A stretch of DNA of 64,000 nt from contig JAPMXV010000050.1 of NCBI GenBank assembly GCA_026936335.1, positions 62,001 to 126,000 on the forward strand, given 5' to 3'. A program made the position numbers and the translations under genes. This DNA is from Mantamonas sphyraenae STR306. Its lineage: Eukaryota > Protista > CRuMs. The notes beneath the pieces were generated by a model that searched no databases, had not been told where the DNA came from, and saw only the letters and a program-made list of their open reading frames with translations. Positions 11,901-62,110 of the stretch are shown piece by piece (position 1 is the first letter of the stretch; each line of letters opens with the position of its first letter).

Positions 11901-11963
11901 GCCCAGTACGCCAACGCCGTCAACATGTTTAGCAACGACGTGAGCGACGCAGATGCAGAGGCA

Positions 11964-12003
<40 letters not shown>

Positions 12004-24537: not shown

Positions 24538-27500
24538 ATGAGCGATACCTTGGGCGCCCTGGCCAATGCCTGGGCTGATCCTACGAGGAAACAGCATGCA
24601 CTGAACCGATTAAGGTTTGTTTCTCGGTCCCCAAGTGTGAATGTGCCGATCCGTGGATCCGCTTTCTCACACCCACACTGCCCCACGCTCCGCACTGCAG
24701 CTCATCGGCAGAGAATACGCCTGGCTCCACCTTTCAAGCCATTTTGGACAGCATTGCCCAAGCTCCAGCCGACGGTGCGTGTCCACAAGCAGCCCAGCGA
24801 AATTTGGCGGGAGCTGATCTTTTTGGCGCCAAGACGGCGCGGAAAGTTGCATCCAGCGCCCCGTTGCCTACCGTCACCCGTTACGCTGACACTCAGCCTG
24901 CCCACGCCTTTCCCATGTACCTGCATCTATGCATGCCAACCACAGTATTGAGCACGGCATCGACACTGGCCAAACTGGGCCAGGTGGCCGCTCAGAACAA
25001 GCGTCTGCAAACACGCAACGCCGACCTTGCCAAGGCGCTCACTGCGGCTGTCGACATGAACCAGAACTTGAAATCACAGGTGGGCATGCTGCGAAACAAG
25101 TGTGAGCGCCAACAGAAGCTCCTGCAAAGCTTTGAAAGCGAGGTCGGACACATGGACGACCTTCGCAACGAACTCGCACGCCAACGGGCGCTTTGTGAGA
25201 GCCTGGAGGCTCAGATGGCAAGAAACAAAGCGGCCATGGACGCCATGCGAGCCAAAGCACACGCAAAAGACGCACATGGAGGGCACACACGACCGGACGA
25301 GACCGGGCAGCCTGCAGTGGTGCGCGTTCACGAACAACTTTTGCGGGACATTGCAGAAGCGAAGAAAGAGACAGCCAAGCGCCACGCAGAGGCAATGAGG
25401 CAAGCAAAGGAAGCACAGGTAGTGGATGACGTGGACCGTGAAGCACAGGAAACAGTGCGCGTGTTGAGTCACTTTGATCACCAACACGCCAGCGTGGAGG
25501 AGCGTGCCGCCATGACCCATCGCATGCAGAAAGTGACGCAAAAGATGGCGATGTATCGGCCCACACGAATCGGTGACCACGCACTACAAGAGGCCCAACA
25601 AGAACAGGAAAACCAGAGCCAGCGGACCAAGGCAAAGAGAAAACCCAGCAAGCAGCGACGTGCATTGACCCAGGTCAAGAACGCACCCGTGCACTCTGTT
25701 GCGCAACACTCGTCTGAAAGCGTGCACACGCCCATGGAAAGCCAGCCTCAGGACCTAGATGCCCCTCACAGCGCGTTTGCGCAGCAGCGATCAACAACCA
25801 TGCCAATGCCACTCGAAACGGCACTGACGGTCCAGGAAGTGGCCAAGAGAGTGGCCGAGCTGGATGTGGAACAGATGAGCACAGAGGAGCGTGTTGCTGC
25901 CGGTCGTCATATGCTGCAGGCTGCAGTGGCACTGAGCAACGACGAATCGATTCTTCGACCCGCGCCAGAGACCAACACACCCGGCAAGAGCATCCGACAA
26001 CAACAAGACAAAGACGTGGAAGTGAAAACCCCTGTGCGACTTGCAGAAAGCGAGCGTGTGGTGGAGGTTGTACGCGAGCTGGAGAAGATGGACGTCCGGG
26101 CGATGACGCAGGAAGAGCGCATCCAGGCCGTTGAGCGCATGCACATGGCAGCTCAAGCGCTTGAAAATGACCAATCGGTGCTGGGAAGCACTTCCACGCC
26201 AGCTGGGGAGGACGATTCAGTGGAGGGAGTTGGCCTGTTGTCTCCCATCGGTGCAGGATTTCGCGAGGAGATGGCCATGTCACCAAACCAGTCGCTGATG
26301 GTGTCGTTGATGCAGGAAAAGGCACGCAGCGCATCGGGTTGGGATGAAGTGGACGCTGCCTGGGCAACGGTGCAGCAGTTGTGCGAGAAGCAACATCAGT
26401 CGCAAGAGCTGCAACAGCACAAGGACGTGGTGGATCATGAGCGCATGGACAGACTGAAAGCTAGCCTGGCAGCGCAACACGACGTTGTCAACAGACTGAA
26501 CACAGAAGTGGAAACGGCACAGCAGCAGGCACATGATTGGAGAGCAGCCGCCGCGGAGTGGCAGGAACGCCATGCAGACGCCATGCAGTCACTGTCGCGT
26601 GTCGCAAGCAAGTTGGCACAACAAGAGGCACAATCTGTGCAACACCAAAAGATGGGCAAAAAGACATATGACCGACTGGTGATGCGAAAGAAAGAAGCTG
26701 CACAACATGCGCGAGAGCTCGCTGAAACAAAGGCTGCATTGAGCGACGCTCAGGCAAAGCTGGAGGCCCTGGAACGGGAACGAGATGACGTCCAACGTGA
26801 AGCAAATGCATTGGAGAGGACAAGCCGGGCTATTGCGCACGCTGCGGACGAAAGAGACCGACAGATCGCGCTTGTGGAGCAGGCGAGGGATGCCGCTGAA
26901 GCGCGTCAGAGAGTGCAGGCGCAACAGAACGAGGAAGACATGCGGGACTTGCGCAAAAAGGTACGCGATGAATTAGAAGCGATGGATAGCGACAGAAGGG
27001 AGGCACTATTGCAGGCGGAAGCAAAGATCAGGCGCTTGGAGGAGGAGAAGGATGCTGAGAAGAAGCAAGCATTGATGAAACTGGAGGAGGAGAAGGGTGC
27101 CGAGCAGCGCAAGGCAGTGGCAGCTGTGGAGGAGGAGAAGGAGGCTGAGAAGAAGCAGGCACTGATGAAGCTGGAGGAGGAGAAGGATGCCGAGCAGCGC
27201 AAGGCAGTGGCAGCTGTGGAGGAGGAGAAGGATGCTGAGAAGAAGCAGGCACTGATGAAGCTGGAGGAGGAGAAGGATGCCGAGAAGAAGCAGGCACTGA
27301 TGAAGCTGGAGGAGGAGAAGGATGCCGAGCAGCGCAAGGTGGTGGCAGCTGTGGAGGAGGAGAAGGAGGCAGAGAAGAAGCAGGCATTGGTGAAGCTTGA
27401 GGAGGAGAAGGATGCTGAGAAGAAGCAGGCATTGATGAAGCTGGGGGAGGAGAAGGATGCCGAGCAGCGCAAGGCAGTGGCAGCTGTGGAGGAGGAGAAG

Positions 27501-30500
27501 GAGGCTGAGAAGAAGCAGGCACTGATGAAGCTGGGGGAGGAGAAGGATGCTGAGAAGAAGCAGGCACTGATGAAGCTTGAGGAGGAGAAGGATGCTGAGC
27601 AGCGCAAGGCAGTGGCAGCTGTGGAGGAGGAGAAGGAGGCTGAGAAGAAGCAGGCACTGATGAAGCTGGAGGAGGAGAAGGATGCCGAGCAGCGCAAGGC
27701 AGTGGCAGCTGTGGAGGAGGAGAAGGAGGCAGAGAAGAAGCAGGCACTGATGAAGCTTGAGGAGGAGAAGGATGCCGAGCAGAAGCAGGCACTGATGAAG
27801 CTTGAGGAGGAGAAGGATGCTGAGCAGCGCAAGGTGGTGGCAGCTGTGGAGGAGGAGAAGGACGCTGAGAAGAAGCAGGCACTGATGAAGCTTGAGGAGG
27901 AGAAGGATGCTGAGAAGAAGCAGGCATTGATGAAGCTGGGGGAGGAGAAGGATGCTGAGCAGCGCAAAGCAGTGGCAGCTGTGGAGGAGGAGAAGGAGGC
28001 TGAGAAGAAGCAGGCATTGATGAAGCTGGAGGAGGAGAAGGAGGCTGAGCAGAAGCAGGCACTGATGAAGCTTGAGGAGGAGAAGGATGCCGAGCAGCGC
28101 AAGGCAGTGGCAGCTGTGGAGGAGGAGAAGGAAGCCGAGAAGAAGCAGGCACTGATGAAGCTGGAGGAGGAGAAGGATGCCGAGCAGCGCAAGGCAGTGG
28201 CAGCTGTGGAGGAGGAGAAGGATGCTGAGAAGAAGCAGGCACTGATGAAGCTGGAGGAGGAGAAGGATGCTGAGAAGAAGCAGGCACTGATGAAGCTGGA
28301 GGAGGAGAAGGAGGCTGAGCAGAAGCAGGCACTGATGAAGCTTGAGGAGGAGAAGGATGCTGAGCAGCGCAAGGCAGTGGCAGCTGTGGAGGAGGAGAAG
28401 GAGGCTGAGAAGAAGCAGGCACTGATGAAGCTTGAGGAGGAGAAGGATGCTGAGCAGCGCAAGGCAGTGGCAGCTGTGGAGGAGGAGAAGGAGGCTGAGA
28501 AGAAGCAGGCACTGATGAAGCTGGAGGAGGAGAAGGATGCCGAGCAGCGCAAGGCAGTGGCAGCTGTGGAGGAGGAGAAGGATGCCGAGAAGAAGCAGGC
28601 ACTGATGAAGCTGGAGGAGGAGAAGGATGCCGAGCAGAAGCAGGCACTGATGAAGCTTGAGGAGGAGAAGGATGCTGATCAGCGCAAGGCAGTGGCAGCT
28701 GTGGAGGAGGAGAAGGAGGCTGAGAAGAAGCAGGCACTGATGAAGCTTGAGGAGGAGAAGGATGCTGAGCAGCGCAAGGCAGTGGCAGCTGTGGAGGAGG
28801 AGAAGGACGCTGAGAAGAAGCAGGCACTGATGAAGCTGGAGGAGGAGAAGGATGCTGAGCAGCGCAAGGCAGTGGCAACTGTGGAGGAGGAGAAGGAGGC
28901 TGAGAAGAAGCAGGCACTGATGAAGCTGGAGGAGGAGAAGGATGCCGAGCAGAAGCAGGCACTGATGAAGCTTGAGGAGGAGAAGGATGCCGAGCAGCGC
29001 AAGGCAGTGGCAGCTGTGGAGGAGGAGAAGGACGCTGAGAAGAAGCAGGCACTGATGAAGCTGGAGGAGGAGAAGGATGCCGAGAAGAAGCAGGCACTGA
29101 TGAAGCTGGAGGAGGAGAAGGATGCTGAGCAGAAGCAGGCACTGATGAAGCTTGAAGAGGAGAAGGATGCTGAGAAGCGCAAGGCAGTGGCAACTGTGGA
29201 GGAGGAGAAGGATGCCGAGAAGAAGCAGGCACTGATGAAGCTTGAGGAGGAGAAGGATGCCGAGCAGAAGCAGGCACTGATGAAGCTTGAGGAGGAGAAG
29301 GATGCTGATCAGCGCAAGGCAGTGGCAGCTGTGGAAGGTGAATACGACATCCAGCAAGGGAAGCTCCTTTCCCAGATAGCGGACTCCAAGGTTGAAGCCG
29401 AACAAGGGCAGGAGATTCTTAAGCACCTGTCCCAGAGTGACAGTAGGCAGGCTGACGCCCTTGTCAATCTGCGCATGGAAGCCGCAGAACATGCTGCGAT
29501 CATCTCAAAGCTCACCGAGGTTGCCAGGAATATGGATCCCCATGAAGAATTGGAGTGTGAAAAGTGTAGGATGGAAGTTGAGCTTGTGGGCGAGTGCAGT
29601 GAGCATGTGCTAAAGGCAAGAGTGGAACGAGGCGCACAAGCGAACCAACACGAGTTTGCAGAGGTGGAAAGTACCGGGGATGAATGCGTCTGGGAAGGAG
29701 AGTGCGTCTCAAGGGATGAGAAGAAGCGAGGCTGGTTGTTGACCAAGTTGGAAGTCGAAGGGGCAGGCGAACAAGCCGGACGAGACGAGCAATCCGTCGG
29801 TTTGGGACGCGAAGGGCGTGCAGAGGTACAGCGTTTGCGTGGAGCGGTGCAGAAGGGCACATTTGAGATTCGACGCATGCGAGCCGTGTGGCAGAAAGAG
29901 AAGGACATTGCAGAAGCAGAACGTGAGGCGCTACAAGCGCGTGTCGACGAGCTGGAAGCCATTGCTGTACGCAAGCCTTCCCCTGGTCCCATATCCCCTC
30001 CCCACACAGAGAGTGGAGACGACGATCAACACGACTCGCTCATGGCTCTTCAGGACCAGCTTAAGCAGCTACGCGCAGAGAAGGACTCGGCAATTTCCAG
30101 TTTGATGCGAGCACGCCAAGAGGCAGAAAAAGAGGCCTTTGCTGTTGGTTGCGCGCTCCAGGAGCTCCGGAAAGAGAAGGAGCATGCCGTATGGGCTATG
30201 GAAATCCACCAGGATCCTGTCGCCACGCTTGTATCCATGCAGGAACGTGTCGAGACTTTGCAACGCAACAGAGATCAACTCGATCGCATGTTGATGTGGG
30301 AGCGCGAAGAGAAGGAGGCTGCATGGAAGTGCGTGGACACATTGGGCACGGCCTGGGAGTTGGCCGACAGAGAGGCGGAGGAACGGGCAGCCTACGCAGA
30401 CGAAACTTTGGGTGAACTGCGGTCTCAGGTCGAGCAACTTCTGTGCTCCAAGAACGAGCTGGAGGCCAATGTTGCCTCGCAGAGCAAGCAGAAGGATGAG

Positions 30501-33500
30501 CTTTTGATGGCAGTTCAGGAAGCTCAACAAAGGAATGCGGCCCTCGAAAGTGAGCAACAGAACCTGCAACACCTGCACGAAGAACTGGAAAAGAGTCATG
30601 CACAAACCATTGAATCAATGGAAACGCACACAGCCAAGCTGGAGAAGAAGTTGGACAATATGCGTGCACGACGCAAGAAGGAGGGCGAGCAGCACGCTGC
30701 ATCGCAGGCACGACTCCGTGCCGCTCTGGCCAGTGCAGAGGGCAACATGGTGAAGATTCTCCAAGCATGCAAGGCCTCACAGGACGAGATGGATGCTGCT
30801 GAAGAAGCACTAAAAAAGGCAGACATGGAGGTACAGCAACTTCAAGCGCGCGTGCGAGAGCTGGAAACGACATCACAGCAGCAAAAGGAAGCAATCATCC
30901 GAGCAGTGGCACGGGCTACAAACTCCTCCCTCCAAGATGAGGAGGTTTCCGACGTCCAAGCCATCGATGGCCTTCAAGAGCTGGTCAATCAGATTGAAAC
31001 CGAACAGAACCAGAACAAGGCGATGCGTGCAAAGAACGAGGAGCTGCGGCGTCATGTTGCACAGTTGCGAAGCGAAAAGGACGCAGCCATCTCGAGGCTG
31101 ATGCGGGCACGCCAGCAAGCTGAGAAAGAGGCGCATCGCCTTGGCGAGGCATTGCGCAGGGCGCAGGAAGAGCGCGAGCATCATCAGAGCACAATCGACC
31201 ACCTTGCAAGCGATCAGGGACAAAGTGTGTCCACACATATCGTCACTAAACAGACACCGGCAAGTGCACAGTCGTACGTGCGTGAGCTGGAGAACCAGCG
31301 TGACGTTCTCGACCGCATGGTGGCTGGGTCACAGGAAGACACGCGCATCGCGTTGCGTTCTTTGGAAGAGGCCTGGGAGCAAGTCGAGAAGGCCGCTACG
31401 GAGAACTCAAACCATATGAAGCACGTTGCCGCGCTGGAGGGCGAACTTTGCCGTCTTCGGGAAATCGTGGCATCCGCAGACGAGGAAAGAGAAGGAAAAG
31501 GAACCAACGTGGCCGCGATGATCACTGTGCAAGGACCAAAGGAACGCGAGATGCAGGCCACGTACACCGGCACTTTGCAATCCACCGAGATGTCACGGCT
31601 GCTCCGTGGGAGCAGAGCACACACAGAGGCTCTGGAACAAGAGAGGAACAGACTGGAGCAACAGGTTTCCGAACAGAAGGAGGTCATGCAACAGCTGCAG
31701 CGCCGTCTGGACAACCACGACAGAAAGCACGAGCACCACCGCACAGAACTGACACAGGCCATGTCCAGTGCAGTTTCAGCAATGCACGTGGCACAGGAAG
31801 ACGCACAAGCGCAGTCCACAGCCATGCAAAAAGTGGTGGAGGAACTGGAAGAGAACACAAGCATTATCGCCTCCCTGGAAGAAGACTTGAACAGAGAAAG
31901 GCTGAGATCGACCCAAGCGCAACAGAGAATTGAAGAGCTGACAGCACAACTGCAAATGACGAGAGAAGCCACGGCGGAGCAGCTTACAGAGGTCACTGAG
32001 GAGAAGCAGGTTGTTGCCACGCAGCTGGCAGATGTGACTGACGAGAAGGAGACAGTGACGAAGCAGCTGGCAGAGGTGACCGAAGAGAAGGAGACCGCCG
32101 TGAAGAAGCTTGCAGAGGGGACTGAGGAGAAGGAGGCTGTGACCAAGCAGCTGGCCGAGATGGTTGAGGAGAAGGAGGCTGTAACCAAGCAGCTGGCAGA
32201 TGTGACCGAGGAGAAGGAGACCGCCGTGAAGAAGCTGGCGGCGACCAAGGCATCCAAAGTACGCAGTGAAGAAGCACTGGAGGCAAAGGTGGCAGAGCTT
32301 GTGCAAGAAGTGTCCGAGGCACGATCGCGATCAGAGAGGCTGGCGGAGATTGAGGATGTGGACAAGCGTGTGCGGGCAGCCAACGAAGAGTTGCAGAAGG
32401 AGAATGCGACATTGCGGGAAGAGAAATCTGCTTGGAAGGAGGAGATGAGGAAGTACGAAGAACGGGCAGTTGTGGCAGAAGAGGAGGTGGAACGAGTTGA
32501 GGCGGAGATTGTATTGGTGAGAGAGGAGGTTGTGAAGGAGAGGGCGGAGAGGGAGGCTGTGGCCAAGCAGCTGGCAGATGTGACTGAGGAGAAGGAAACC
32601 ACCGTGAAGCAGCTTGCCGAGGTGACTGAGGAGAAGGAGACAGCCGTGAAGCAGGTGGCAGAGGTGATTGAGGAGAAGGAGGCTGTGACCAAGCAGCTGG
32701 CCGAGATGGTTGAGGAGAAGGAGGCTGTAACCAAGCAGCTGGCAGATGTGACCGAGGAGAAGGAGACCGCCGTGAAGAAGCTGGCGGCGACCAAGGCATC
32801 CAAAGTACGCAGTGAAGAAGCACTGGATGCAAAGGTGGCAGAGCTTGTGCAAGAAGTGTCCGAGGCACGATCGCGATCAGAGAGGCTGGCGGAGATTGAG
32901 GATGTGGACAAGCGTGTGCGGGCAGCCAACGAAGAGTTGCAGAAGGAGAATGCGACATTGCGGGAAGGGAAATCTGCTTGGAAGGAGGAGATGAAGAAGT
33001 ACGAGGAACGGGCAGTTGTGGCAGAGGAGGAGGTGGAACGAGTTGAAGCGGAGATTGTATCGGTGAGAGAGGAGGTTGTGAAGGAGAGGGCGGAGAGGGA
33101 GGCTGTGGCCAAGCAGCTGGCAGATGTGACTGAGGAGAAGGAGGCTGTAACCAAGCAGCTGGCAGATGTGACTGAGGAGAAGGAAACCACCGTGAAGCAG
33201 CTTGCCGAGGTGACTGAGGAGAAGGAGACAGCCGTGAAGCAGCTGGCAGAGGTGATTGAGGAGAAGGAGGCTGTGACCAAGCAGGTGGCAGAGGTGACTG
33301 AGGAGAAGGAGGCTGTGACCAAGCAGCTGGCCGAGATGGTTGAGGAGAAGGAGGCTGTAACCAAGCAGCTGGCAGATGTGACCGAGGAGAAGGAGACCGC
33401 CGTGAAGAAGCTGGCGGCGACCAAGGCATCCAAAGTACGCAGTGAAGAAGCACTGGATGCAAAGGTGGCAGAGCTTGTGCAAGAAGTGTCCGAGGCACGA

Positions 33501-36500
33501 TCGCGATCAGAGAGGCTGGCGGAGATTGAGGATGTGGACAAGCGTGTGCGGGCAGCCAACGAAGAGTTGCAGAAGGAGAATGCGACATTGCGGGAAGAGA
33601 AATCTGCTTGGAAGGAGGAGATGAAGAAGTACGAGGAACGGGCAGTTGTGGCAGAGGAGGAGGTGGAACGAGTTGAGGCGGAGATTGTATTGGTGAGAGA
33701 GGAGATTGTGAAGGAGAGGGCGGAGAGGGAGGCTGTGGCCAAGCAGCTGGCAGATGTGACTGAGGAGAAGGAAACCACCGTGAAGCAGCTTGCCGAGGTG
33801 ACTGAGGAGAAGGAGACAGCCGTGAAGCAGCTGGCAGAGGTGATTGAGGAGAAGGAGGCTGTGACCAAGCAGGTGGCAGAGGTGACTGAGGAGAAGGAGG
33901 CTGTGACCAAGCAGCTGGCCGAGATGGTTGAGGAGAAGGAGGCTGTAACCAAGCAGCTGGCAGATGTGACCGAGGAGAAGGAGACCGCCGTGAAGAAGCT
34001 GGCGGCGACCAAGGCATCCAAAGTACGCAGTGAAGAAGCACTGGATGCAAAGGTGGCAGAGCTTGTGCAAGAAGTGTCCGAGGCACGATCGCGATCAGAG
34101 AGGCTGGCGGAGATTGAGGATGTGGACAAGCGTGTGCGGGCAGCCAACGAAGAGTTGCAGAAGGAGAATGCGACATTGCGGGAAGGGAAATCTGCTTGGA
34201 AGGAGGAGATGAAGAAGTACGAGGAACGGGCAGTTGTGGCAGAGGAGGAGGTGGAACGAGTTGAAGCGGAGATTGTATCGGTGAGAGAGGAGGTTGTGAA
34301 GGAGAGGGCGGAGAGGGAGGCTGTGGCCAAGCAGCTGGCAGATGTGACTGAGGAGAAGGAGGCTGTAACCAAGCAGCTGGCAGATGTGACTGAGGAGAAG
34401 GAAACCACCGTGAAGCAGCTTGCCGAGGTGACTGAGGAGAAGGAGACAGCCGTGAAGCAGCTGGCAGAGGTGATTGAGGAGAAGGAGGCTGTGACCAAGC
34501 AGGTGGCAGAGGTGACTGAGGAGAAGGAGGCTGTGACCAAGCAGCTGGCCGAGATGGTTGAGGAGAAGGAGGCTGTAACCAAGCAGCTGGCAGATGTGAC
34601 CGAGGAGAAGGAGACCGCCGTGAAGAAGCTGGCGGCGACCAAGGCATCCAAAGTACGCAGTGAAGAAGCACTGGATGCAAAGGTGGCAGAGCTTGTGCAA
34701 GAAGTGTCCGAGGCACGATCGCGATCAGAGAGGCTGGCGGAGATTGAGGATGTGGACAAGCGTGTGCGGGCAGCCAACGAAGAGTTGCAGAAGGAGAATG
34801 CGACATTGCGGGAAGAGAAATCTGCTTGGAAGGAGGAGATGAAGAAGTACGAGGAACGGGCAGTTGTGGCAGAGGAGGAGGTGGAACGAGTTGAGGCGGA
34901 GATTGTATTGGTGAGAGAGGAGATTGTGAAGGAGAGGGCGGAGAGGGAGGCTGTGGCCAAGCAGCTGGCAGATGTGACTGAGGAGAAGGAAACCACCGTG
35001 AAGCAGCTTGCCGAGGTGACTGAGGAGAAGGAGACAGCCGTGAAGCAGGTGGCAGAGGTGACCGAGGAGAAGGAGACCGCCGTGAAGCAGCTTGCAGAGG
35101 GGACTGAGGAGAAGGAGGCTGTGACCAAGCAGCTGGCCGAGATGGTTGAGGAGAAGGAGGCTGTAACCAAGCAGCTGGCAGATGTGACCGAGGAGAGGGA
35201 GACCGCCGTGAAGAAGCTTGCCGAGGTGACTGAGGAGAAGGAGACAGCCGTGAAGCAGCTGGCAGAGGTGATTGAGGAGAAGGAGGCTGTAACCAAGCAG
35301 CTGGCAGATGTGACCGAGGAGAAGGAGACCGCCGTGAAGAAGCTGGCGGCGACCAAGGCATCCAAAGTACGCAGTGAAGAAGCACTGGATGCAAAGGTGG
35401 CAGAGCTTGTGCAAGAAGTGTCCGAGGCACGATCGCGATCAGAGAGGCTGGCGGAGATTGAGGATGTGGACAAGCGTGTGCGGGCAGCCAACGAAGAGTT
35501 GCAGAAGGAGAATGCGACATTGCGGGAAGAGAAATCTGCTTGGAAGGAGGAGATGAAGAAGTACGAGGAACGGGCAGTTGTGGCAGAGGAGGAGGTGGAA
35601 CGAGTTGAAGCGGAGATTGTATCGGTGAGAGAGGAGGTTGTGAAGGAGAGGGCGGAGAAGGAGACTGTGGCCAAGCAGCTGGCAGATGTGACTGAGGAGA
35701 AGGAGGCTGTAACCAAGCAGCTGGCAGATGTGACTGAGGAGAAGGAAACCACCGTGAAGCAGCTTGCCGAGGTGACTGAGGAGAAGGAGACAGTGACGAA
35801 GCAGCTGGCCGAGATGGTTGAGGAGAAGGAGGCTGTAACCAGGCAGCTGGCAGAGGTGACTGAGGAGAAGGACACTATGGCCAAGGAGCTGGCACAGGTC
35901 GCTGAGGAGAAGGACACTGTGACGAAGCAGCTGGAAGAGGTTGCTGAGGAGAATGACAGTGTCGGTGCGACTCTGGCAGCTGAGAAGCGTACTGCGGAAG
36001 CACTGCGGGAAGAACTTGCCTTGTCTGTGTCTGCGCAGGACGAGATGCGTCGTGAATGGGCTGATGAGATGGCGGCGATGGAGAAGCAACTGCAGGAAGT
36101 GCGAGCGGAGGCGGATAGACAGGTGGAGATGATCGCAGCGTTGGAAGAGGTTGCAAGGAACATGGATCCGCACGAGGAGAAAGAGTGCGCACGATGCATG
36201 GGAGAGCTTGCGCTTGTTGGGGAATGGAGTGAGCATGTGGCGAAGAGCAGGGTGGAGGGCAGGAGCCAGGTTGGTGGAGACGAGTACGCGGAGGTGGATG
36301 AGGAGGGTGGAGAGTGGGCATGGGAGGTAGAAATGGTGGCGAGCGATGGGAAGAAGCGGCGAGGATGGCAGCTGAGCAAGATGGAAGTTGAGGGAGGAGG
36401 AGAAGAAAGCGGCCAAGGTGGGGAGAGTGGAGTTGGCCTTGGAAGCGATGGGCGTGCGGCTGTGCAGCGTCTGCGAGGCGATGTGCAGAAGGAACGATTT

Positions 36501-48500: not shown

Positions 48501-51500
48501 GCACACGATGCATGGGTGAGCTTGCGCTTGTTGGGGAATGGAGTGAGCATGTGGCGAAGAGCAGGGTGGAGGGCAGGAGCCAGGTTGGTGGAGACGAGTA
48601 CGCGGAGGTGGATGAGGAGGGTGGAGAGTGGGCATGGGAGGTAGAAAGGGTGGCGAGCGATGGGAAGAAGCGGCGAGGATGGCAGCTGAGCAAGATGGAA
48701 GTTGAGGGAGGAGGAGAAGAAAGCGGCCAAGGTGGGGAGAGTGGAGTTGGCCTTGGAAGCGATGGGCGTGCGGCCGTGCAGCGTCTGCGAGGCGATGTGC
48801 AGAAGGAACGATTTGAGATTCGACGTATGCGTGCGGTTTGGCAGAAGGAAAGGTCGGAGTCGGAGGCGATGCAGGCAAGTTTGGCGGAAGAACGGCAGAC
48901 GCTGGAGGCCCGTGTTGCAGAGCTTGAGAGTGAGCTGTCGGATGCACGAGCAGCGACGGAGAAGATGGCGACGGAGCTTGCGAAAGCACAGACGGCACAC
49001 GAAAGTGAGGTGAAGGAGCTTGAGGCGATGCATCAGCAGCAGATGGCGACGATGGAGGCGACGGATGGCGAGGAAGCAGCGGAGGCAGCGAAGAAGCATC
49101 GTGAAGAGATGGAACGGGTGCGAGAAGAACGACGGGCGGCGTTGAAGGAGTTGGAGCGCGTTGTTGCTGAATCGAAGGCAAAGGAGGAGGAGGCGAAGCG
49201 TGCAGCTGATGAGGCAGGAAAGGCAGCACGTGCGGCAGAAGCGCGTGCAGTGGAGGAAGCCGTGATGGCCGAGCAGGTTGCAGCGAAGGAAGCACGAGAA
49301 GCACTGGGAAGCGGAGAAGGCAGAAGAGCACAAGAAGGAAGTGGAAGGGATTTTGGCATCGTTGCAGAAGCTGCAGGCGCAGATGCACTCTTTGCAGAAG
49401 GATGCACAGGAGGCGCAGGAGCAGAACGACACGCTGCAAAGGTCGTTGGAGGAATATGAGGAGAGCATTGCTTTGTTGGAACAGGAGAAGGAGGTTGCGT
49501 TGAGGAAGGCGGAGGAGACGGGGCGACTGAGGGAGGAGGAGGCAGTGGCGGCTGTGAAGGAAGCGATGCGAGAAGAGCACATGGCGTATGTGTCGGATAT
49601 GGAGAGGAAGTCGGACGAGAAGGCGGAGATGGAACGTGTGGCAGCTGTGGAAGCAGCAGTGGCCAGGACGAAGGAGGAGATGGAAACACAGAGGACATTG
49701 GCGGTGGAGGAAGCTGTGAAGGAGGCCAAGAAGGAGATGGAAGAGCAGCATGCTGTCGCTGTTGAGGAAGCTGTGAAGGAGACCAAGAAGGAGATGGAAG
49801 AGCAGCATTCTGTCGCTGTTGAGGAAGCTGTGAAGGAGACCAAGAAGGAGATGGAAGAGCAGCATTCTGTCGCTGTTGAAGAAGCTGTAAAGGAGGCGAA
49901 GCAGCAGATGGAGGAGGAACATGCAGTGGCTGTTGAGGAAGCTGTGAAGGAGACCAAGAAGGAGATGGAAGATCAGCATGCTGTCGCTGTTGAAGAAGCT
50001 GTGAAGGAGACCAAGAAGGAGATGGAAGAGCAGCATTCTGTCGCTGTTGAGGAAGCTGTGAAGGAGGTGAAGCAGCAGATGGAGGAGGAACATGCAGCGG
50101 CCGTTGAAGAAGCAGTGAAGGAGGCGAAGAAGGAGATGGAGGAGCAGCGTTCTGTCGCTGTTGAGGTAGCTGTGAAGGAGGTGAAGCAGCAGATGGAGGA
50201 GGAACATGCAGCGGCCGTTGAAGAAGCAGTGAAGGAGACCAAGAAGGAGATGGAAGAGCAGCATTCTGTCGCTGTTGAGGAAGCTGTGAAGGAGACCAAG
50301 AAGGAGATGGAAGAGCAGCATTCTGTCGCTGTTGAAGAAGCTGTAAAGGAGGCGAAGCAGCAGATGGAGGAGGAACATGCAGCGGCTGTTGAGGAAGCTG
50401 TGAAGGAGACCAAGAAGGAGATGGAAGAGCAGCATGCTGTCGCTGTTGAAGAAGCTGTGAAGGAGACCAAGAAGGAGATGGATGAACAGCATTCAGCCGA
50501 GGTGACTGCGATGCAGGAGCAGATGGCGTCGTCGTGGGCAGAAGCCGAGCAAGAGGTGACGGAGCTGCGTGTGAAGAACACCGCTCTGGAGAAGGAAAGG
50601 GGGGAGTTGAAGGAAGCTTTGGCGAGGGTAGAGTCGAAGATGGACGACGTGGTCGCCGAGCGTACGGCGATGATTGCACGACAGGATGAAGAGAGGAATA
50701 AGCAGCGTGGAATTGTGAGACGGTTGGAGGAAGAGGCACAGGAGGAGCGGGTGGCGCAGAAGACCCGTGAGGAACAGCTGGAACAGGCGTTGAAGCAGGC
50801 TCGGGAGCGTGCGACGCGGTTGGTGGAGATTGAAGAAGCCGATGAACGACTGACAAAGGCGAACCAGGAGCTGCAGGACGAGGTGGAGGAACTGCGAGAG
50901 AAGAACGAGAAGTTGGAGAAGGAAGTTGCGGAAGATCGACGTCAGATGGAGTCGATGTACTCTGAAGCGGAAGGGAAGGTTCAAGCGCTGACGCAGGAGA
51001 TACAGGAAGAGCAAAGTGAGAGGGAACGGGCTGTGGAAGAAGTGCAGGTGGAACTGCGTGCAGTGCAACATCGTGTGGAAGTGCTTGAGGAGGAGAAGAG
51101 TGCACTGGAGAAGCAAGTTTCAGCGAAGGATGAGGAGAAGGAGGGTGTGACGAAGCAGCTGGCAGAGGTGACTGAAGAGAAGGAGGGTGTGACCAAGCAG
51201 CTGGCAGTGGTGACTGAGGAAAAGGACGGTATGGCCAAGCAGCTGGCAGAGGTGGCTGAGGAGAAGGTCACTGTGTCGAAGCAGCTGGCGGTGGTGACTG
51301 AAGAGAAGGAGTCTATGTCGCAGCAGCTGGCACAGGTCGCTGAGGAGAAGGAGGCTGTGTCGAAGCAGCTGGCAGATGTGACTGAGGAGAAGGAGGCTGT
51401 GACGAAGCAGCTGAAAGAGATTGCTGAGGAGAAGGACAGCGTCAGTGAGACTCTTGCAGCTGAGAAGCGTACTGTGGAAGCACTGCGGGAAGAACTTGCC

Positions 51501-54500
51501 TTGTCTGTGTCTGCACAGGACGAGTTGCGTCGTGAACGGGCTGATGAGATTGCGGCGATGGAGAAGCAACTGCAGGAAGTACGAGCGGAGGCGGATAGAC
51601 AGGTGGAGATGATCGCAGCGTTGGAAGAGGTTGCAAGGAACATGGATCCGCACGAGGAGAAAGAGTGCACACGATGCATGGGTGAGCTTGCGCTTGTTGG
51701 GGAATGGAGTGAGCATGTGGCGAAGAGCAAGGTAGAGAGCAGAAGCCAGGTTGGTGGAGACGAGTACGCGGAGGTGGATGAGGAGGGTGGAGAGTGGGCA
51801 TGGGAGGTAGAAAGGGTGGCGAGCGATGGGAAGAAGCGGCGAGGATGGCAGCTGAGCAAGATGGAAGTTGAGGGAGGAGGAGAAGAAAGCGGCCAAGGTG
51901 GGGAGAGTGGAGTTGGCCTTGGAAGCGATGGGCGTGCGGCCGTGCAGCGTCTGCGAGGCGATGTGCAGAAGGAACGGTTTGAGATTCGACGTATGCGTGC
52001 GGTTTGGCAGAAGGAAAGGTCGGAGTCGGAGGCGATGCAGGCAAGTTTGGCGGAAGAACGGCAGACGCTGGAGGCCCGTGTTGCAGAGCTTGAGAGTGAG
52101 CTGTCGGATGCACGAGCAGCGACGGAGAAGATGGCGACGGAGCTTGCGAAAGCACAGACGGCACACGAAAGTGAGGTGAAGGAGCTTGAGGCGATGCATC
52201 AGCAGCAGATGGCGACGATGGAGGCGACGGATGGCGAGGAAGCAGCGGAGGCAGCGAAGAAGCATCGTGAAGAGATGGAACGGGTGCGAGAAGAACGACG
52301 GGCGGCGTTGAAGGAGTTGGAGCGCGTTGTTGCTGAATCGAAGGCTAAGGAGGAGGAGGCGAAGCGTGCAGCTGATGAGGCAGGAAAGGCAGCACGTGTG
52401 GCAGAAGCGCGTGCAGTGGAGGAAGCCGTGATGGCCGAGCAGGTTGCAGCGAAGGAAGCACGAGAAGCACTGGAAGCGAAGAAGGCAGAAGAGCACAAGA
52501 AGGAAGTGGAAGGGATTTTGGCATCGTTGCAGAAGCTGCAGGCGCAGATGCACTCTTTGCAGAAGGATGCACAGGAGGCGCAGGAGCAGAACGACACGCT
52601 GCAAAGGTCGTTGGAGGAATATGAGGAGAGCATTGCTGTGTTGGAACAGGAGAAGGAGGTTGCGTTGAGGAAGGCGGAGGAGACGGGGCGACTGAGGGAG
52701 GAGGAGGCAGTGGCGGCTGTGAAGGAAGCGATGCGAGAAGAGCACATGGCGTATGTGTCGGATATGGAGAGGAAGTCGGAAGAGAAGGCGGAGATGGAAC
52801 GTGTGGCAGCTGTGGAAGCAGCAGTGGCCAGGACGAAGGAGGAGATGGAAGCACAGAGGGCATTGGAGGTGGAGAAAGCTGTGAAGGAGGTGAAGCAGCA
52901 GATGGAGGAGGAACATGCAGCGGCTGTTGAAGAAGCAGTGAAGGAGACCAAGAAGGAGATGGATGAACAGCATTCAGCCGAGGTGACGGCGATGCAGGAG
53001 CAGATGGCGTCGTCGTGGGCAGAAGCCGAGCAAGAGGTGACGGAGCTGCGTGTGAAGAACACCGCTCTGGAGAAGGAAAGGGGGGAGTTGAAGGAAGCTT
53101 TGGCGAGTGTAGAGTCGAAGATGGACGAAGTGGTCGTCGAACGTACGGCGATGATTGCACGACAGGATGAAGAGAGGAATAAGCAGCGTGGAATTGTGAG
53201 ACGGTTGGAGGAAGAGGCACAGGAGGAGCGGGTGGCGCAGAAGACCCGTGAGGAACAGCTGGAACAGGCGTTGAAGCAGGCTCGGGAGCGTGCGACGCGG
53301 TTGGTGGAGATTGAAGAAGCCGATGAACGACTGACAAAGGCGAACCAGGAGCTGCAGAACGAGGTGGAGGAACTGCGAGAGAAGAACGAGAAGTTGGAGA
53401 AGGAGTTGGCAGCGCAGCAAGAGATGATGGATGTGCTGCGACGCCGTCTGGATGGTGAAGGACGTGTGGGCAGGGAGGGATCGGATGCGGATGCAGAGGC
53501 GATTGCAAGTGCGTTGGCGGAGGCGAAGGAGGCTAAGCAGGCGCTGTCGAAGGCACTGTCGGAGAAGAAGATGCAGGAAGATGAAGTGTTGTCGCTCAGG
53601 GGCCAACTTGCGATGGCAGAGGAGATGTTGAATGGGGACGGAAGCGGCGGAGGAGGAGATGGAGGAGCAGCACTGCGTGTGGCGGAGCTGCAAGACAAGC
53701 TGGGCAACCTGGAGACGATGAAACGACAACTGGAAGAACGTGTGGCGGAGCTGGAGAGTGAGGGTGGTGTGAAGAGGACGATGGAGGAGACGCAGGCGGA
53801 AGCGTTGGATGCAGTGCAGCAGGAGCTTGCGGCGGTGCAGACACGATGCAACGAGCTGGAAGATGAGCGAGAGGCGGCGGAGAAGAGCATGGCGTCGCTT
53901 TCGGAGCAACTGCGTGTGTCGGAAGAGGAACGCAGGTCGATGACATCGCAACTGTTGTCACTGAGCAGTGTGGGGGTGGATGAGAGTGGGGATGGGGAGA
54001 GTGTGGGTGGAGAGAGCAGAGTGAGTGTGGCGGAGATGTCGCAGGCGTTTGAAGAGGCGGATATGGAGGTGCAGAAGATGAGGGGAGAAGTGCAGGAGAT
54101 GGCAGCAGAGGTGGAGAAGGCAAGAGAGGAGCGGGATGAGGCGTTGGCGCGTGTGGCGCGTGTGGAAGCTGGACGCAAGGAGGAGACAGAAGGCCTGATG
54201 GGACAGGTGGACGAGTTGCAACGTGCACTGGTGGTTGCCGAGCAGAAGGTTGGGCATGTGGACACGGAAGCAAGTGAAGGTGAAGTGGAGACACAACGGG
54301 TGAAGGAGCTGGAAGAGACTGTGCGGGAGCTTGCAGAGGAGAAGAAGCGTGCTGTGGAGGAAGCGCGAAGGTTTGAAGAGATGATGGCGACGGTGGTGCG
54401 TGCTCAGGAGGAAGTTGGAGACGAGGATGGGAGTGGGGAGAGTGGGAAAGAGAAGGATGGGGAGACGGAGACACGGGCAAGCACAGAACTGCAGGCACAG

Positions 54501-57500
54501 ATGGCGGAACTGTCGCGTCTGCTTCAAGGAAGGAGTGCACACATGGAGGCGATTGAGGCTGAGCGTGTGCGACTGGAGAAGGAGCTGGCAGCGCAGCAAG
54601 AGATGATGGATGTGCTGCGACGCCGTCTGGATGGTGAAGGACGTGTGGGCAGGGAGGGATCGGGTGCGGATGCAGAGGCGATTGCAAGTGCGTTGGCGGA
54701 GGCGAAGGAGGCTAAGCAGGCGCTGTCGAAGGCACTGTCGGAGAAGAAGATGCAGGAAGATGAAGTGTTGTCGCTCAGGGGCCAACTTGCGATGGCAGAG
54801 GAGATGTTGAATGGGGACGGAAGCGGCGGAGGAGGAGATGGAGGAGCAGCACTGCGTGTGGCGGAGCTGCAAGACAAGCTGGGCAATCTGGAGACGATGA
54901 AACGACAACTGGAAGAACGTGTGGCGGAGCTGGAGAGTGAGGGTAGTGTGAAGAGGACGATGGAGGAGACGCAGGCGGAAGCGTTGGATGCAGTGCAGCA
55001 GGAGCTTGCGGCGGTGCAGACACGATGCAACGAGCTGGAAGATGAGCGAGAGGCGGCGGAGAAGAGCATGGCGTCGCTTTCGGAGCAACTGCGTGTGTCG
55101 GAAGAGGAACGCAGGTCGATGACATCGCAACTGTTGTCACTGAGCAGTGTGGGGTGGATGAGAGTGGGGATGGGGAGAGTGTGGGTGGAGAGAGCAGAGT
55201 GAGTGTGGCGGAGATGTCGCAGGCGTTTGAAGAGGCGGATATGGAGGTGCAGAAGATGAGGGGAGAAGTGCAGGAGATGGCAGCAGAGGTGGAGAAGGCA
55301 AGAGAGGAGCGGGATGAGGCGTTGGCGCGTGTGGCGCGTGTGGAAGCTGGACGCAAGGAGGAGACAGAAGGCCTGATGGGACAGGTGGACGAGTTGCAAC
55401 GTGCACTGGTGGTTGCCGAGCAGCAGGTGGGCATGTGGACACGGAAGCAAGTGAAGGTGAAGTGGAGACACAACGGGTGAAGGAGCTGGAAGAGACTGTG
55501 CGGGAGCTTGCAGAGGAGAAGAAGCGTGCTGTGGAGGAAGCGCGAAGGTTTGAAGAGATGATGGCGACGGTGGTGCGTGCTCAGGAGGAAGTTGGAGACG
55601 AGGATGGGAGTGGGGAGAGTGGGAAAGAGAAGGATGGGGAGACGGAGACACGGGCAAGCACAGAACTGCAGGCACAGATGGCGGAACTGTCGCGTCTGCT
55701 TCAAGGAAGGAGTGCACACATGGAGGCGATTGAGGCTGAGCGTGTGCGACTGGAGAAGGAGCTGGCAGCGCAGCAAGAGATGAAGGATGTGCTGCGACGC
55801 CGTCTGGATGGTGAAGGACGTGTGGGCAGGGAGGGATCGGGTGCGGATGCGGATGCAGAGGCGATTGCAAGTGCGTTGGCGGAGGCGAAGGAGGCTAAGC
55901 AGGCGCTGTCGAAGGCACTGTCGGAGAAGAAGATGCAGGAAGATGAAGTGTTGTCGCTCAGGGGCCAACTTGCGATGGCAGAGGAGATGTTGAATGGGAC
56001 GGAAGCGGGCGGAGGAGGAGATGGAGGAGCAGCACTGCGTGTGGCGGAGCTGCAAGACAAGCTGGGCAACCTGGAGACGATGAAACGACAACTGGAAGAA
56101 CGTGTGGCGGAGCTGGAGAGTGAGGGTGGTGTGAAGAGGACGATGGAGGAGACGCAGGCGGAAGCGTTGGATGCAGTGCAGCAGGAGCTTGCGGCGGTGC
56201 AGACACGATGCAACGAGCTGGAAGATGAGCGAGAGGCGGCGGAGAAGAGCATGGCGTCGCTTTCGGAGCAACTGCGTGTGTCGGAAGAGGAACGCAGGTC
56301 GATGACATCGCAACTGTTGTCACTGAGCAGTGTGGGGGTGGATGAGAGTGGAGATGGGGAGAGTGTGGGTGGAGAGAGCAGAGTGAGTGTGGCGGAGATG
56401 TCGCAGGCGTTTGAAGAGGCGGATATGGAGGTGCAGAAGATGAGGGGAGAAGTGCAGGAGATGGCAGCAGAGGTGGAGAAGGCAAGAGAGGAGCGGGATG
56501 AGGCGTTGGCGCGTGTGGCGCGTGTGGAAGCTGGACGCAAGGAGGAGACAGAAGGCCTGATGGGACGAGTGGACGAGTTGCAACGTGCACTGGCTGCCAA
56601 AGAGAGCAGTGACAAGAATGTGGATCGATTGGCCCAGGAGGTGAAGAAATCCAAGCAGCAGTTGTCTATGGTAATGGCAGAGAAGATGAGGCAAGAGGAC
56701 GAATTGAGCACGCTGAGGCTCCAGCTGAAGTATGTCGAAGAAGCCGGGGGTGGCGGTGAATCCCTGCACGTGGGTGAACTTGAAGGCAAAGTGGCCAATC
56801 TGACGTCGCAGGTTGCGCTGGCGGAGATCACACGCAAGGAGTATGAAGAAATGGTGACGATTGCCAACCAGGCGGCAAAGGCTGCCGATGAAGATGCTGC
56901 GGAACTGAGACGTGAGCTGGCAGACGCCGAGTTGCGATGTCGTCAACTGGAGGAAGAACGAAGCATTTTGGCATCACAATTGTCGTTGGTGACGGGAAAT
57001 GATGAGGATGCCGACGTGCTGGAGATGGCGAGTGCAATTGTGATGGAGGTGGAGGAGCAACGCGTGGTTGTGGAGCGCATTGAAAGGGAGCACCTTGCAG
57101 GAGGTGAGGCGAGGGAGAACAAGGAGGAGGTGGAGAGGTTGCGTATGCAGGTGAAGGAGCTGGAGAATAGCTGCGCAAGGGCAGAGGAACATGTGCACAA
57201 GATGGAGATGGTGGACCAGACCCTGAGGAGTTCACTGGCAAGTCACGAAGATGCGGTGAGGGATCTGAGGGAACGTCTGCAGGAGCGAGACGAGGCATTG
57301 GCGGCGTTGCGAGAACTGGTGTCTGTGGAAACGACGCGAACCGTGGATGTGAAGATCGAGGAGTTTGACGTGGAAGGGGACGGTGGAGCAGAGTTGGTGA
57401 GCTCCCTGAAACTGCGGTTGGCATCGTTGACGATAGCAATGTCGGATCTGGAGCGACAGAACAAGTATCTGGACGAGGAGGTGGAGCGCACGAAGGAGCT

Positions 57501-57663
57501 GCACAGGCGAACGCTGGACATTGCAACAAGCCACATCGATGAGCTGGAACTGCGCTCTCAAAACCTGGAACAGTCGCTGGAACAGTCGCTCAACATGAAC
57601 GAGTCGCGATCGTCAGTGCTGGAGTGGTCAGAGTCTGTGCAGATCGAGGAGATTGACGAGTAG
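24538..57663 (+). CDS. Giant acidic coiled-coil repeat protein, ~10,950 aa, no signal peptide
   Basis: Exons 24538-24614, 24701-24774 and 24946-57663 (introns GTTTGT/CTCAC/CAG and GTGCGT/CTGAC/CAG, frame-consistent). ORFs 24744, 45020, 49278, 55154 and 55435 join through small indels near 45003 (+2), 49307 (+1), 55152 (-1) and 55428 (-1), each visible against sister repeat copies. Composition is dominated by E/K/A/Q. Confidence 0.85.
27036..29336 (+). repeat. ~51 tandem 45-bp units (15 aa: LEEEKDAEKKQALMK / LEEEKDAEQRKAVAA)
   Basis: GGAGGAGGAGAAG recurs every 45 nt (27038, 27083, ...); two unit types are interspersed. Confidence 0.95.
31980..35950 (+). repeat. Six 546-714 bp units with nested 42-bp (14 aa, KQLAEVTEEKEAVT) repeats
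   Basis: Marker ORFs at 32266, 32812, 33442, 34030, 34660 and 35374; spacings 546, 630, 588, 630, 714. Confidence 0.95.
35950..53400 (+). repeat. Six 2.6-3.6 kb higher-order units, each with a CxxC node, a 57-bp (19 aa) array and (except the truncated last) a 42-bp array
   Basis: Marker ORFs at 36388, 39037, 42223, 45114, 48702 and 51868; spacings 2649, 3186, 2891, 3588, 3166. Length differences come from copy number of the nested arrays. Confidence 0.95.
53395..56592 (+). repeat. ~2.7 tandem copies of a ~1.18 kb coding unit
   Basis: Marker ORFs at 53431, 54610 and 55787. Confidence 0.92.
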
Positions 57664-57709
57664 AAATAGTGCGATCTTGGAATGCGCTCAACCCGACAAA
57701 CAAAAACCG

Positions 57710-59017
57710 ATGAAGACCCAATTTGTGATCTTTGCACTGCTTGTGGCCGTTGTGGCTGCATCGTCGCTGCGTGTGCCGCTGAGCACCATGCAGGCGTCGG
57801 ACAAGTCGAAGGAGATGTTCATGAGCAAGCTGCGCATGCATCAAGAGCAGCTGCCGATTGTGGCAGCCATGAGCCAGGAGGCCCGTGTGGCCCGCTCTAT
57901 GCAGGGCGGCACGTGGCGCCAGAAGCTGATCAACTTTGAGGTGAGTGGAATGAGGAAAAGGGGCCGGGAGCAGCGGGAGGTGGGAGTACACGCGATTGGC
58001 CGTTTCGGCGTTTTTCGAGAAAGGCGCGTGTACTGACTCGTGTGGACTGTGCGGTGGGACGGCAATTGGGAATGGGGTGGACACTGAGTACAGGAGCTGC
58101 AGTACTACGGCCCGATCACGATCGGTGAGCCTGCGCAGTCGTTCAAGGTTGTGTTTGACACGGGCTCGTCCAACCTGTGGATTCCGTCGAAGAACTGCAC
58201 GGACGCAGCGTGCGAGGACCACCAGCGCTACGACCACAGCGCGAGCAACACGTACCAGGCCAACGGCACTGCTTTCAGCATCCAGTACGGCACGGGCTCC
58301 GTGGCAGGCTTCCTGTCGACGGACACTGTGACCGTGGCCGGCAGCGCTGCGATTGAGGCGCAGACGTTTGGCGAGGCGACGACGATGGCCTCGTTCTTCA
58401 CCAACACGGTGCCCGATGGAATTCTGGGTCTGGCGTTCCGCAGCATTGCGAACGACGACGTGGAGACTCCGTTTGACAACATGGTGAAGCAGGGTCTTGT
58501 GCAGAACGCCCAGTTTGGCGTGTACCTGTCGCCCACGAGCGGCGACTCGTCGTCGGAGATCCTCTTTGGCGGCGCCGACTCGAGCCTGTACTCGGGCGAC
58601 CTGCACCGCGTGCCTCTGACGCGCGAGCTGTACTGGCTGTTTGATCTGGATGGCGTGAACGCTGGTGGTGTGTCTCTGTGCGGCAGTGGCAGCCCCTGCC
58701 AGGCGATTGCCGACACCGGCACGTCGCTGATTGCGGGTCCGTCGGCTCAGGTGGCTCAGCTGCAGCAGCAGGTGAACGTGAGCTCGGACTGCTCCAACCT
58801 GGACTCTCTGCCCAACCTGACCTTCACCCTGGCCGGCAAGGACTTTGTGCTGACCCCGAACCAGTACGTGCTGAAGCTTCAGGGCCAGTGCATCACTGGC
58901 GTGCAGGGCATCGACCTGCCCGAGCCCCTGTGGATTCTGGGCGACGTCTTCCTCCGCGTGTACTACTCTGTGTACGACGCCCAGGACCAGAGCGTGTCGT
59001 TTGCCACCGCCAACTGA
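57710..59017 (+). CDS. Pepsin-family (A1) aspartic protease, cathepsin D/E-like preproenzyme, ~384 aa
   Basis: Exons 57710-57940 and 58094-59017. Signal peptide MKTQFVIFALLVAVVAA, pro-part LRVPL, QYYGPITIG, FDTGSSNLW, YGTGS, DGILGLAF, IADTGTSLI, WILGDVFLR. Confidence 0.96.
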
Positions 59018-59182
59018 GCGTTGAGCACTTTGTGAATGAAATGCACCAAGACACTCTGTACTGTTGGGCGTCAATCATCATCATCCATACACACGCTGCA
59101 TCACTGGCACCCACTCTTTCGCGATGGGCCAGCAAATCAAAAGAAACAACAACCCTCGGGAATCCCTCGCCGCGCTTCGCAA

Positions 59183-61859: not shown

Positions 61860-62110
61860 GAGCAGGATTGAGAGCAGGCACAGTGACAAAAGAACAGGAG
61901 AAGATGTGGATGAGATGGAATGATGGAATGAACCCGGCGACAGCCTTGCCAACCAAAAAAAAACCAACCAACCTTTCGGAACCCCCGCAGCATCTTCTTC
62001 GCTGCTCAACCTATCAACTCCAAACCAGACCGAACACCAATTGCGGAAAACAATTCGCTGTTTTGACTCTGGGATTGACACGAAAAGCAAGAGAGAAGAG
62101 AAGAATCAAG

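Follow-up and report, generated by a model that had tools for sequence, protein, structure and literature searches.

Giant repetitive helical proteins whose location is known are cytoskeletal or tethering proteins, e.g., FAZ10 (PMC5358337), GSBP1/2 (PMC9946354) and ANC-1 (PMC8139857). ANC-1 from C. elegans, an orthologue of Nesprin-1/2, has 8,545 amino acids (aa), is highly helical and contains six tandem 903-aa repeats that are near-identical in DNA (PMC8139857). Giantin (GOLGB1) has a coil of 3,056 aa, the longest identified according to a 2016 review, and this coil is described as a spacer of ~0.5 um (PMC5082667). FAZ10 from Trypanosoma has 52 repeats of 35 aa in 4,334 annotated aa, with an uncertain repeat number in the assembly (PMC5358337). 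The Sfi1-like proteins GSBP1 and GSBP2 from Spirostomum are 13,125 and 17,974 aa in length, intronless and built of tandem repeats; they form the backbone of a fibre, and a Trp motif every 69 aa binds centrin/spasmin (PMC9946354). We describe here a giant gene on the + strand of a 64,000-nucleotide (nt) stretch of DNA from Mantamonas sphyraenae STR306 (contig JAPMXV010000050.1, positions 62,001 to 126,000, referred to as the window). The window is eukaryotic as judged by its GT..AG introns and has ~60% G+C. The gene encodes an acidic protein of ~10,000-11,000 residues without a membrane segment.

The giant protein is nearest in architecture to ANC-1, giantin, FAZ10 and GSBP1/2, and it is a member of no family tested. 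We consider the chances slightly better than even that it is a subunit of a cytoskeletal fibre specific to its lineage: a jointed parallel coiled coil whose unique ends anchor or polymerise it and whose length arose through nested in-frame duplication. A cytoskeletal location with the corresponding partners is proposed by analogy with FAZ10, GSBP1/2 and ANC-1.

Like ANC-1, the giant protein is very large and helical and has near-identical units of ~900-1,200 aa, six in number as in ANC-1. ANC-1 differs in having CH domains, a transmembrane (TM) span, a KASH domain and a spectrin-like bundle model; no matches to these are found in the giant protein, nor a sequence match to ANC-1 itself. A Pfam scan at E 0.01 gave no match on the aa sequence of 24579-42797, 49266-55199 and 55318-57660; the part left out, 42798-49265, repeats units that were scanned. 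N-terminal CH domains as in Nesprin/ANC-1 are absent in the scanned parts, and a C-terminal TM segment with KASH is absent as judged by low hydropathy, an acidic tail and no PPPx end. The likeness to giantin is the long heptad coiled coil. Giantin has ~3x less helical sequence than the giant protein, where stretches of at least 100 residues without Gly/Pro clusters add up to 8,885 aa, yet the longest uninterrupted stretch of the latter (1,552 aa) is shorter than the annotated coil of giantin. The giant protein also differs from giantin and other long tethers in that it was built by recent tandem duplication and has neither a TM anchor nor a GRIP domain; the C-terminal TM, GRIP and PACT signatures of golgins and pericentrin-AKAP450 were not matched. 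Like FAZ10, it comes from a protist, is a coiled coil made up of repeats, has unique ends in which no motif is recognised and has no TM segment. There is no homology between the two proteins, and CxxC inserts such as those described below are not mentioned for FAZ10 in the available text (PMC5358337). GSBP1/2 differ in their Trp motif array; the Sfi1/GSBP motif F/L-x-x-W-K/R has 0 matches in the giant protein, where only 8 W-K/R are present.

Two further families were considered and rejected. An earlier note on this DNA, made from the sequence alone, had suggested a flagellar rootlet component. Membership in Rootletin/C-Nap1 fails, as the PF15035 score is 14.6 bits against a cut-off of 36, and this match is one of 34 weak coiled-coil matches to the same 105 aa. 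In the zinc hook of Rad50, an inter-chain Zn(Cys)4 site is formed by a CxxC next to a coiled coil (PMC5093744). The giant protein likewise has CxxC motifs beside coiled coil, 7 in all, and the insert Leu four residues past the second Cys matches Leu451 of Rad50 (PMC5093744); equivalents of Rad50 Val446 and Gly448 are not kept. Rad50 has a single hook at the apex of an antiparallel ATPase fold-back, in contrast to seven inserts and a parallel model. Membership in the Rad50 hook family is not supported (no Pfam match with five insert fragments at E 10, a parallel model and no ATPase domain), and by analogy the resemblance would be one of mechanism only.

Reading frame, copy number and transcription

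The locus is covered by a succession of four long open frames, 24579-45056 (6,825 codons), 44957-49459, 49266-55202 and 55318-57663, and an 89-codon frame at 55154-55420 bridges the third and fourth. The earlier note had described one coding stretch of 32.7 kb with about 10,955 codons and no TM segment. The coding stretch is confirmed at 24946-57663. Read-through with the two predicted 5' introns removed and X placed at four frame breaks gives 10,952 aa (1.23 MDa), and the difference between the two counts is within trimming at the breaks. The protein has a pI of 4.74 and a net charge of -1,036, with 21.9% E, 14.6% A, 9.2% K and 0.3% P. The absence of a TM segment also stands: no TM or hydrophobic signal stretch is found, with a maximum 19-residue Kyte-Doolittle mean of 1.12 (no dedicated signal-peptide predictor was run). 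Both 5' exons are predicted and represent a model only. Predicted intron 1 is without the CTGAC branch match, which 4/5 of the examined introns do have. If one of the later in-frame Mets at 24915-25215 were used, the head would be shorter by as much as ~90 aa.

All four frame breaks consist of changes of 1-2 bases within G or GA runs. Each is confined to one repeat copy while the sister copies agree (1/6, 1/6, 1/3 and 1/2 of the copies for breaks 1-4, respectively), and no GT..AG intron with donor and branch consensus bridges a break at any of the four. Contigs of three public runs, termed X1, X2 and X3, were compared on two stretches that total 6.5 of 33 kb. At break 4 the extra base is carried by 3/3 X1 contigs, 3/3 X2 contigs and 1/1 X3 contig, in a region where copies and alleles remain separate contigs. 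These contigs show that break 4 is an error of the assembly. Neither of the two extra bases at break 1 is present in the contigs of X1 and X2 (a collapsed path of low power), and the sister sites of breaks 2 and 3 have no indel listed (collapsed contigs, also of low power). A compensated indel pair in G runs, together with two similar apparent single-base breaks in the upstream repeat gene at 8951-22407 (near 19025 and 21070), points to a general error mode. Breaks 1-3 are probably assembly errors. A real break 1 would end the protein at aa ~6,753. Truncation by real frameshifts, which the earlier note had named as fatal to a giant product, did not hold at break 4; at the weakly checked breaks 1-3, error is the probable explanation.

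Contig depth serves as a rough check rather than a true copy number and was applied to the core of the six large units and to the three-copy ~393-aa unit. For the six-copy core the depth is 211 in X1 against 37.5 for single-copy sequence (5.6x) and 276.8 against 51.9 in X2 (5.3x). For the ~393-aa unit it is 3.4x (X1) and 2.7x (X2) the single-copy depth. Repeat number inflated by misassembly, another objection foreseen in the earlier note, did not hold, as a depth of 5.3-5.6x fits six assembled copies; roughly, contig depth argues against gross repeat inflation.

Run X3, which is listed as 'DNA?', contains four GT..AG joints in a neighbouring gene, where one intron is uncovered; in the intron check the bin depth of 48.1 equals 28/171 of 293.7. 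X3 behaves as RNA because of these spliced joints and the uncovered intron. Its contigs extend over 55385-56126 and 56194-57661 and over most of 44690-46050 (24/30 repeat-core bins). Gaps in the X3 cover at 44920-45195 and the 0.26 share of 5' sequence words present in X3 carry no weight in this reading, and depth does not serve to rank expression. The unique 3' end is found in single-copy contigs of X1 and X2 and in an X3 contig at 56537-57661. The giant gene is apparently transcribed at the repeat core and the 3' end.

The ratio of nonsynonymous to synonymous differences per site (pN/pS) is 0.24 and 0.18 in the two classes of 15-mers and 0.19-0.26 in the 19-mers, in a comparison where repeat pairs are not independent. 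The oldest duplication is that of the two insert types, with a pS of 0.74, a pN of 0.26 and 60% aa identity, and with saturated synonymous sites. These sequence comparisons show the mark of purifying selection on the repeats, less so among the 14-mers.

Periodicity, the CxxC insert and the dimer model

Heptad power exceeds that of shuffled sequences in 8/8 segments tested (0-4 of 500 shuffles reach it), and a canonical (7/2) heptad hydrophobic periodicity is present. The heptad segments consist of ~0.8-1.5 thousand residues and are split by the seven inserts. There are 36 Gly/Pro-rich interruptions in the protein. Stretches of at least 100 residues that are free of Gly/Pro clusters total ~1.3 um, and the contour ceiling is 1.3-1.6 um at 0.148 nm per residue, which is not a stiff-rod length. 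A single acidic rod of up to ~1.5 um had been proposed in the earlier note. The giant acidic non-membrane coiled coil stands; the continuous rod does not, given the seven inserts and the Gly-rich linkers.

The six large units have cores that are 98.2-100% identical and a spacing of 883-1,195 aa, with CxxC motifs at aa 3798, 4681, 5743, 6706, 7901 and 8956. There are 47 19-mers in the whole protein, in arrays of 2.4 to 16.7 copies, with a His at one position in 36/47. Their top hydrophobic harmonic is at 19/5 on 4/4 scales. A 19/5 nonadecad with a stripe period of 3.8 forms a right-handed coiled coil (PMC8016460), and the 19-mer arrays are candidates for this conformation. AlphaFold2 models a 407-aa 19-mer region as a near-continuous helix in the monomer, with a predicted local distance difference test (pLDDT) score of 71.5 and a predicted template modelling score of 0.24. 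A right-handed pentadecad coil is rejected for the 15-mers, which are without a 15/4 stripe, and their array is likely to be a charged or polar-core helix. The Eisenberg-scale column shuffle is passed by no repeat class, the 14-mer included, and so has little power.

The two heptad coils of the unique head are separated by a region that contains Pro and in which a ~50-aa helical motif occurs three times (window positions 25404-26195). These three copies, and the pair of V-x-I-E-E-(F/I)-D motifs of the tail, are candidate docking sites as judged by sequence, and no family match to head or tail motifs is found in Pfam or the ESM Atlas. The tail motifs resemble EEVD-type TPR-binding ends.

The insert is present in seven copies of ~95 aa. 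It starts with D-P-H-E-E, followed by the CxxC, a His twelve residues on and a Gly-rich linker, with a possible beta hairpin between the His and the linker. The CxxC is retained in both diverged insert types. When compared with the spacing consensus of C2H2/CCHC fingers, the insert (C-x2-C-x12-H) has no fourth ligand after the His and no Pfam match, and it is not considered a finger of this type.

Two copies of a 300-aa fragment, consisting of the insert plus its flanks, were modelled with zinc supplied. The homodimer scores 0.43, and the highest of 3 controls 0.00. In a microbial calibration the dimer-score mark is reached by 21/30 solved pairs and 0/23 single chains, and in eukaryotes by 17/29 pairs but only 1/7 of those without an older solved relative. 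No fewer than 53% of contacts are shared between runs, and the pLDDT is 62 or higher. Residues 3-106 and 201-298 make i-to-i contacts, i.e., an in-register parallel coil that flanks the insert. Between these coil stretches the sole residues named in contact are 113 and 116, both Cys, which touch across the chains; the zinc ligand itself is not scored. The model lends modest support to a parallel homodimer of the fragment and weakly suggests that the insert cysteines form an inter-chain zinc clasp.

Relatives, feature coordinates and neighbouring genes

Searches for relatives gave the following. With the head (aa 124-800 of the first open frame), 0/804 scored proteins of 3,753-11,944 aa are related, and with the 19-mer array 0/7,988 proteins of 500-2,000 aa. 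The insert profile has 0 matches in 1.84 billion representative sequences. Among metagenome contigs 0/62 pattern matches were confirmed, and there are 0 matches to PDB sequences at E 10. The ESM Atlas shows only generic coiled-coil clusters (0.88-0.90, low recognition) and nothing for the head. No protein of such description was found in the literature, consulted mostly without subscription papers. The window gene at 2-3148 (- strand) encodes a protein with a uDENN-DENN-dDENN-SBF2-RCC1 architecture, for which one relative was found; the best of 7,990 candidates is 30% identical over 21% of the region. With a best relative this distant for the neighbouring DENN protein, the organism stands well apart from those in the databases, the blank homologue searches partly reflect sampling, and the orphan status of the giant protein is provisional.

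Table 1. Features of the giant gene and its product, in window positions
Feature	Position	Strand	Description
Exon 1	24538-24614	+	predicted; start Met; GT at 24615; frame continuous with exon 2
Intron 1	24615-24700	+	predicted GT..AG
Exon 2	24701-24774	+	predicted
Intron 2	24775-24945	+	predicted GT..AG; 171 nt, in frame, could be retained
Exon 3, giant terminal exon	24946-57663	+	32,718 nt; four frame breaks; stop 57661-57663
N-terminal head, to aa ~747	24946-27035	+	unique; heptad coils aa 52-200 and aa 520-740
15-residue array	27036-29335	+	50 repeats in two classes; 56% charged; ~750 residues
First CxxC/Gly-rich insert copy with flanks	29478-29960	+	diverged; 60% aa identity to next copy
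Non-tandem heptad coiled coil	29961-31977	+	3.5 power reached by 0/500 shuffles
Units of 182-252 aa, about six	31978-35953	+	14-residue heptad repeats plus conserved coil
Six units of ~880-1,200 aa	35654-53408	+	14-mer array, CxxC/Gly insert, conserved coil, 19-mer array, coil
Frame break 1	45001-45004	+	two extra bases in GA run; 1/6 copies
Longest 19-residue array	46055-47080	+	16.7 copies
Frame break 2	49306-49308	+	one extra base in G run; 1/6 copies
Second long 19-residue array	49641-50495	+	all-helical in AlphaFold2
~393-aa unit, ~2.7 copies	53395-56593	+	short heptad helices with Gly-rich linkers between
Frame break 3	~55151	+	inside ~393-aa-unit region
Frame break 4	~55428	+	inside ~393-aa-unit region; window one base short
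Compensated indel pair	~55996, ~56007	+	in G runs, inside ~393-aa-unit region
Unique C-terminal coil and acidic tail	56594-57663	+	355 aa; two V-x-I-E-E-(F/I)-D motifs (57340-57660)

The gene at 22810-24350 (- strand) encodes a PhoD-like phosphatase and is divergent from the giant gene, with ~190 bases between the starts. Downstream, an aspartic protease gene (57710-59017, + strand; Pfam Asp E 2.3e-98) starts 46 bases past the stop of the giant gene. It is followed by a multi-intron membrane-protein gene at 59193-61886 (+ strand), with four introns confirmed by X3 joints, whose product looks channel-like. The locus at 8951-22407 (+ strand) encodes a protein of ~4,200 aa with a signal-peptide-like start, an acidic segment and a very basic body (R 19%, K 8%). 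It has 8 TGDPH-type repeats, the last of which matches Pfam VWD (E 2e-9), and the product is a putative giant polycationic secreted VWD-repeat protein. A secreted-looking gene with introns at 62091-64000 (+ strand), which leaves the window, has an acidic N-terminal part and then an R/K-rich part, similar to 8951-22407.

Alternative readings and significance

In the proposed fibre the chain would be translated whole and two chains would pair as a parallel coiled coil, with a CxxC/Gly-rich insert joint every ~120-160 nm. The unique head and tail would anchor the chain or link chains end to end. The inserts would act as hinges, perhaps as zinc clasps that reset the register, and the rods would bundle into an insoluble fibre. 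The gene would have grown via nested in-frame duplication, and such growth implies that the length is tolerated rather than fixed. A more detailed version, which we regard as rather doubtful, is a zinc-stapled modular cable at cell scale: the 1.2-MDa chain would form a parallel dimer of >1-um contour, with ~3x the helical length of giantin, right-handed 19-residue segments and a register held by seven CxxC-Zn-CxxC clasps that double as hinges.

Several observations weigh against the fibre subunit. The searches above give no homologue or domain that links the giant protein to any cytoskeletal system. The X3 cover represents gene parts (6.5 kb examined, downstream of the 5' 20 kb) and not one 33-kb message. 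The pN/pS of the 14-mers is 0.74. Harmonic 19/5 has p values of 0.03-0.18, with p <0.05 on 1/4 scales only, and the 15-mers have no hydrophobic stripe at a period of 3.75 (p 0.69-0.95 on 4/4 scales). The insert monomer model has a pLDDT of <50 and an unreliable fold, the dimer model may have passed because it resembles coiled coils already solved, and the supplied zinc may draw the cysteines together. Length is also affected. Five and six copies are indistinguishable by depth, units 3 and 4 are identical across 1,351 columns of their cores, and breaks 1-3 were checked only on collapsed mosaic contigs, which lose copy-specific letters. The X1 and X2 contigs differ by single-nucleotide polymorphisms and small indels in unique DNA (55385-60500), which suggests a heterozygous genome. 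These points would fit a length that is partly an artefact: at least one of the first three breaks could be real or restricted to an allele, or the assembly could have duplicated a unit, and the true protein would have 6,750-10,000 aa. We give this a small probability. Break 4 is an error and all breaks are in G/GA runs; the compensated pair is in G runs, and the neighbouring repeat gene has similar breaks; the frame past break 1 is open and covered by the spliced run; units 3 and 4 differ in their 19-mer arrays (3.9 vs 16.7 copies); and with one unit dropped the protein still has ~9,990 aa.

The remaining alternatives concern what the protein does. A single-molecule spacer or ruler, in which extended dimers reach ~1 um from one anchor to another and determine a dimension of the cell or of an organelle, is consistent with the distinct head and tail, with the contour ceiling and with the ~0.5-um spacer role given to the giantin coil (PMC5082667). 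However, spacers are described as conserved in length (PMC5082667), and the variable 19-mer arrays, the unequal unit spacing and the 36 Gly/Pro-rich joints make such a function unlikely; the molecular ruler suggested in the earlier note, if taken as one of fixed length, fits poorly with repeat numbers that vary freely. The six near-identical units recall the six 903-aa repeats of ANC-1 (PMC8139857) and could instead belong to an elastic crosslinker, ANC-1- or spectrin-like, with fold-back bundles or charged single helices and a far shorter, springy chain. The short helices and Gly linkers of the C-terminal triple unit and the stripeless, highly charged 15-mer array would fit such a protein. 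Stretches of 800-1,550 aa free of Gly/Pro clusters with clean heptads, the continuous-helix monomer model and the parallel-dimer model do not, and no CH, spectrin, KASH or TM segment is found by Pfam scan and hydropathy; we judge the crosslinker quite improbable. A nucleoskeletal lamina-like filament is very unlikely. It would be analogous to trypanosome NUP-1, a 450-kDa coiled-coil lamina protein (PMC3313915, PMC8255026, in the parts available), and could account for the head-rod-tail layout, for the clustering of S/T-P sites in the head (7 of the 10 in the protein fall in aa 1-500) and for minimal K(K/R)x(K/R) motifs at 20 places, six inserts among them. Such minimal motifs are common in K/R-rich repeats, there is no bipartite nuclear localisation signal, and no lamin or intermediate filament rod profile, LTD or CaaX was matched in the Pfam scan and at the C-terminus.

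If translated whole, the giant protein would rank with the largest of those that are mainly coiled coil, well beyond giantin; giant repeat-built fibre proteins are already known (GSBP2 with 17,974 aa), which limits the surprise. Two of its elements, the repeated CxxC insert and the array of 19-mers, are small and easily expressed. This makes two structural questions testable, i.e., whether zinc clasps staple a parallel coil and what form a long 19/5 coil takes. With a cytoskeletal location as proposed by analogy, the gene would provide an entry point, at the sequence level, to a novel cytoskeletal structure in a poorly sampled lineage.

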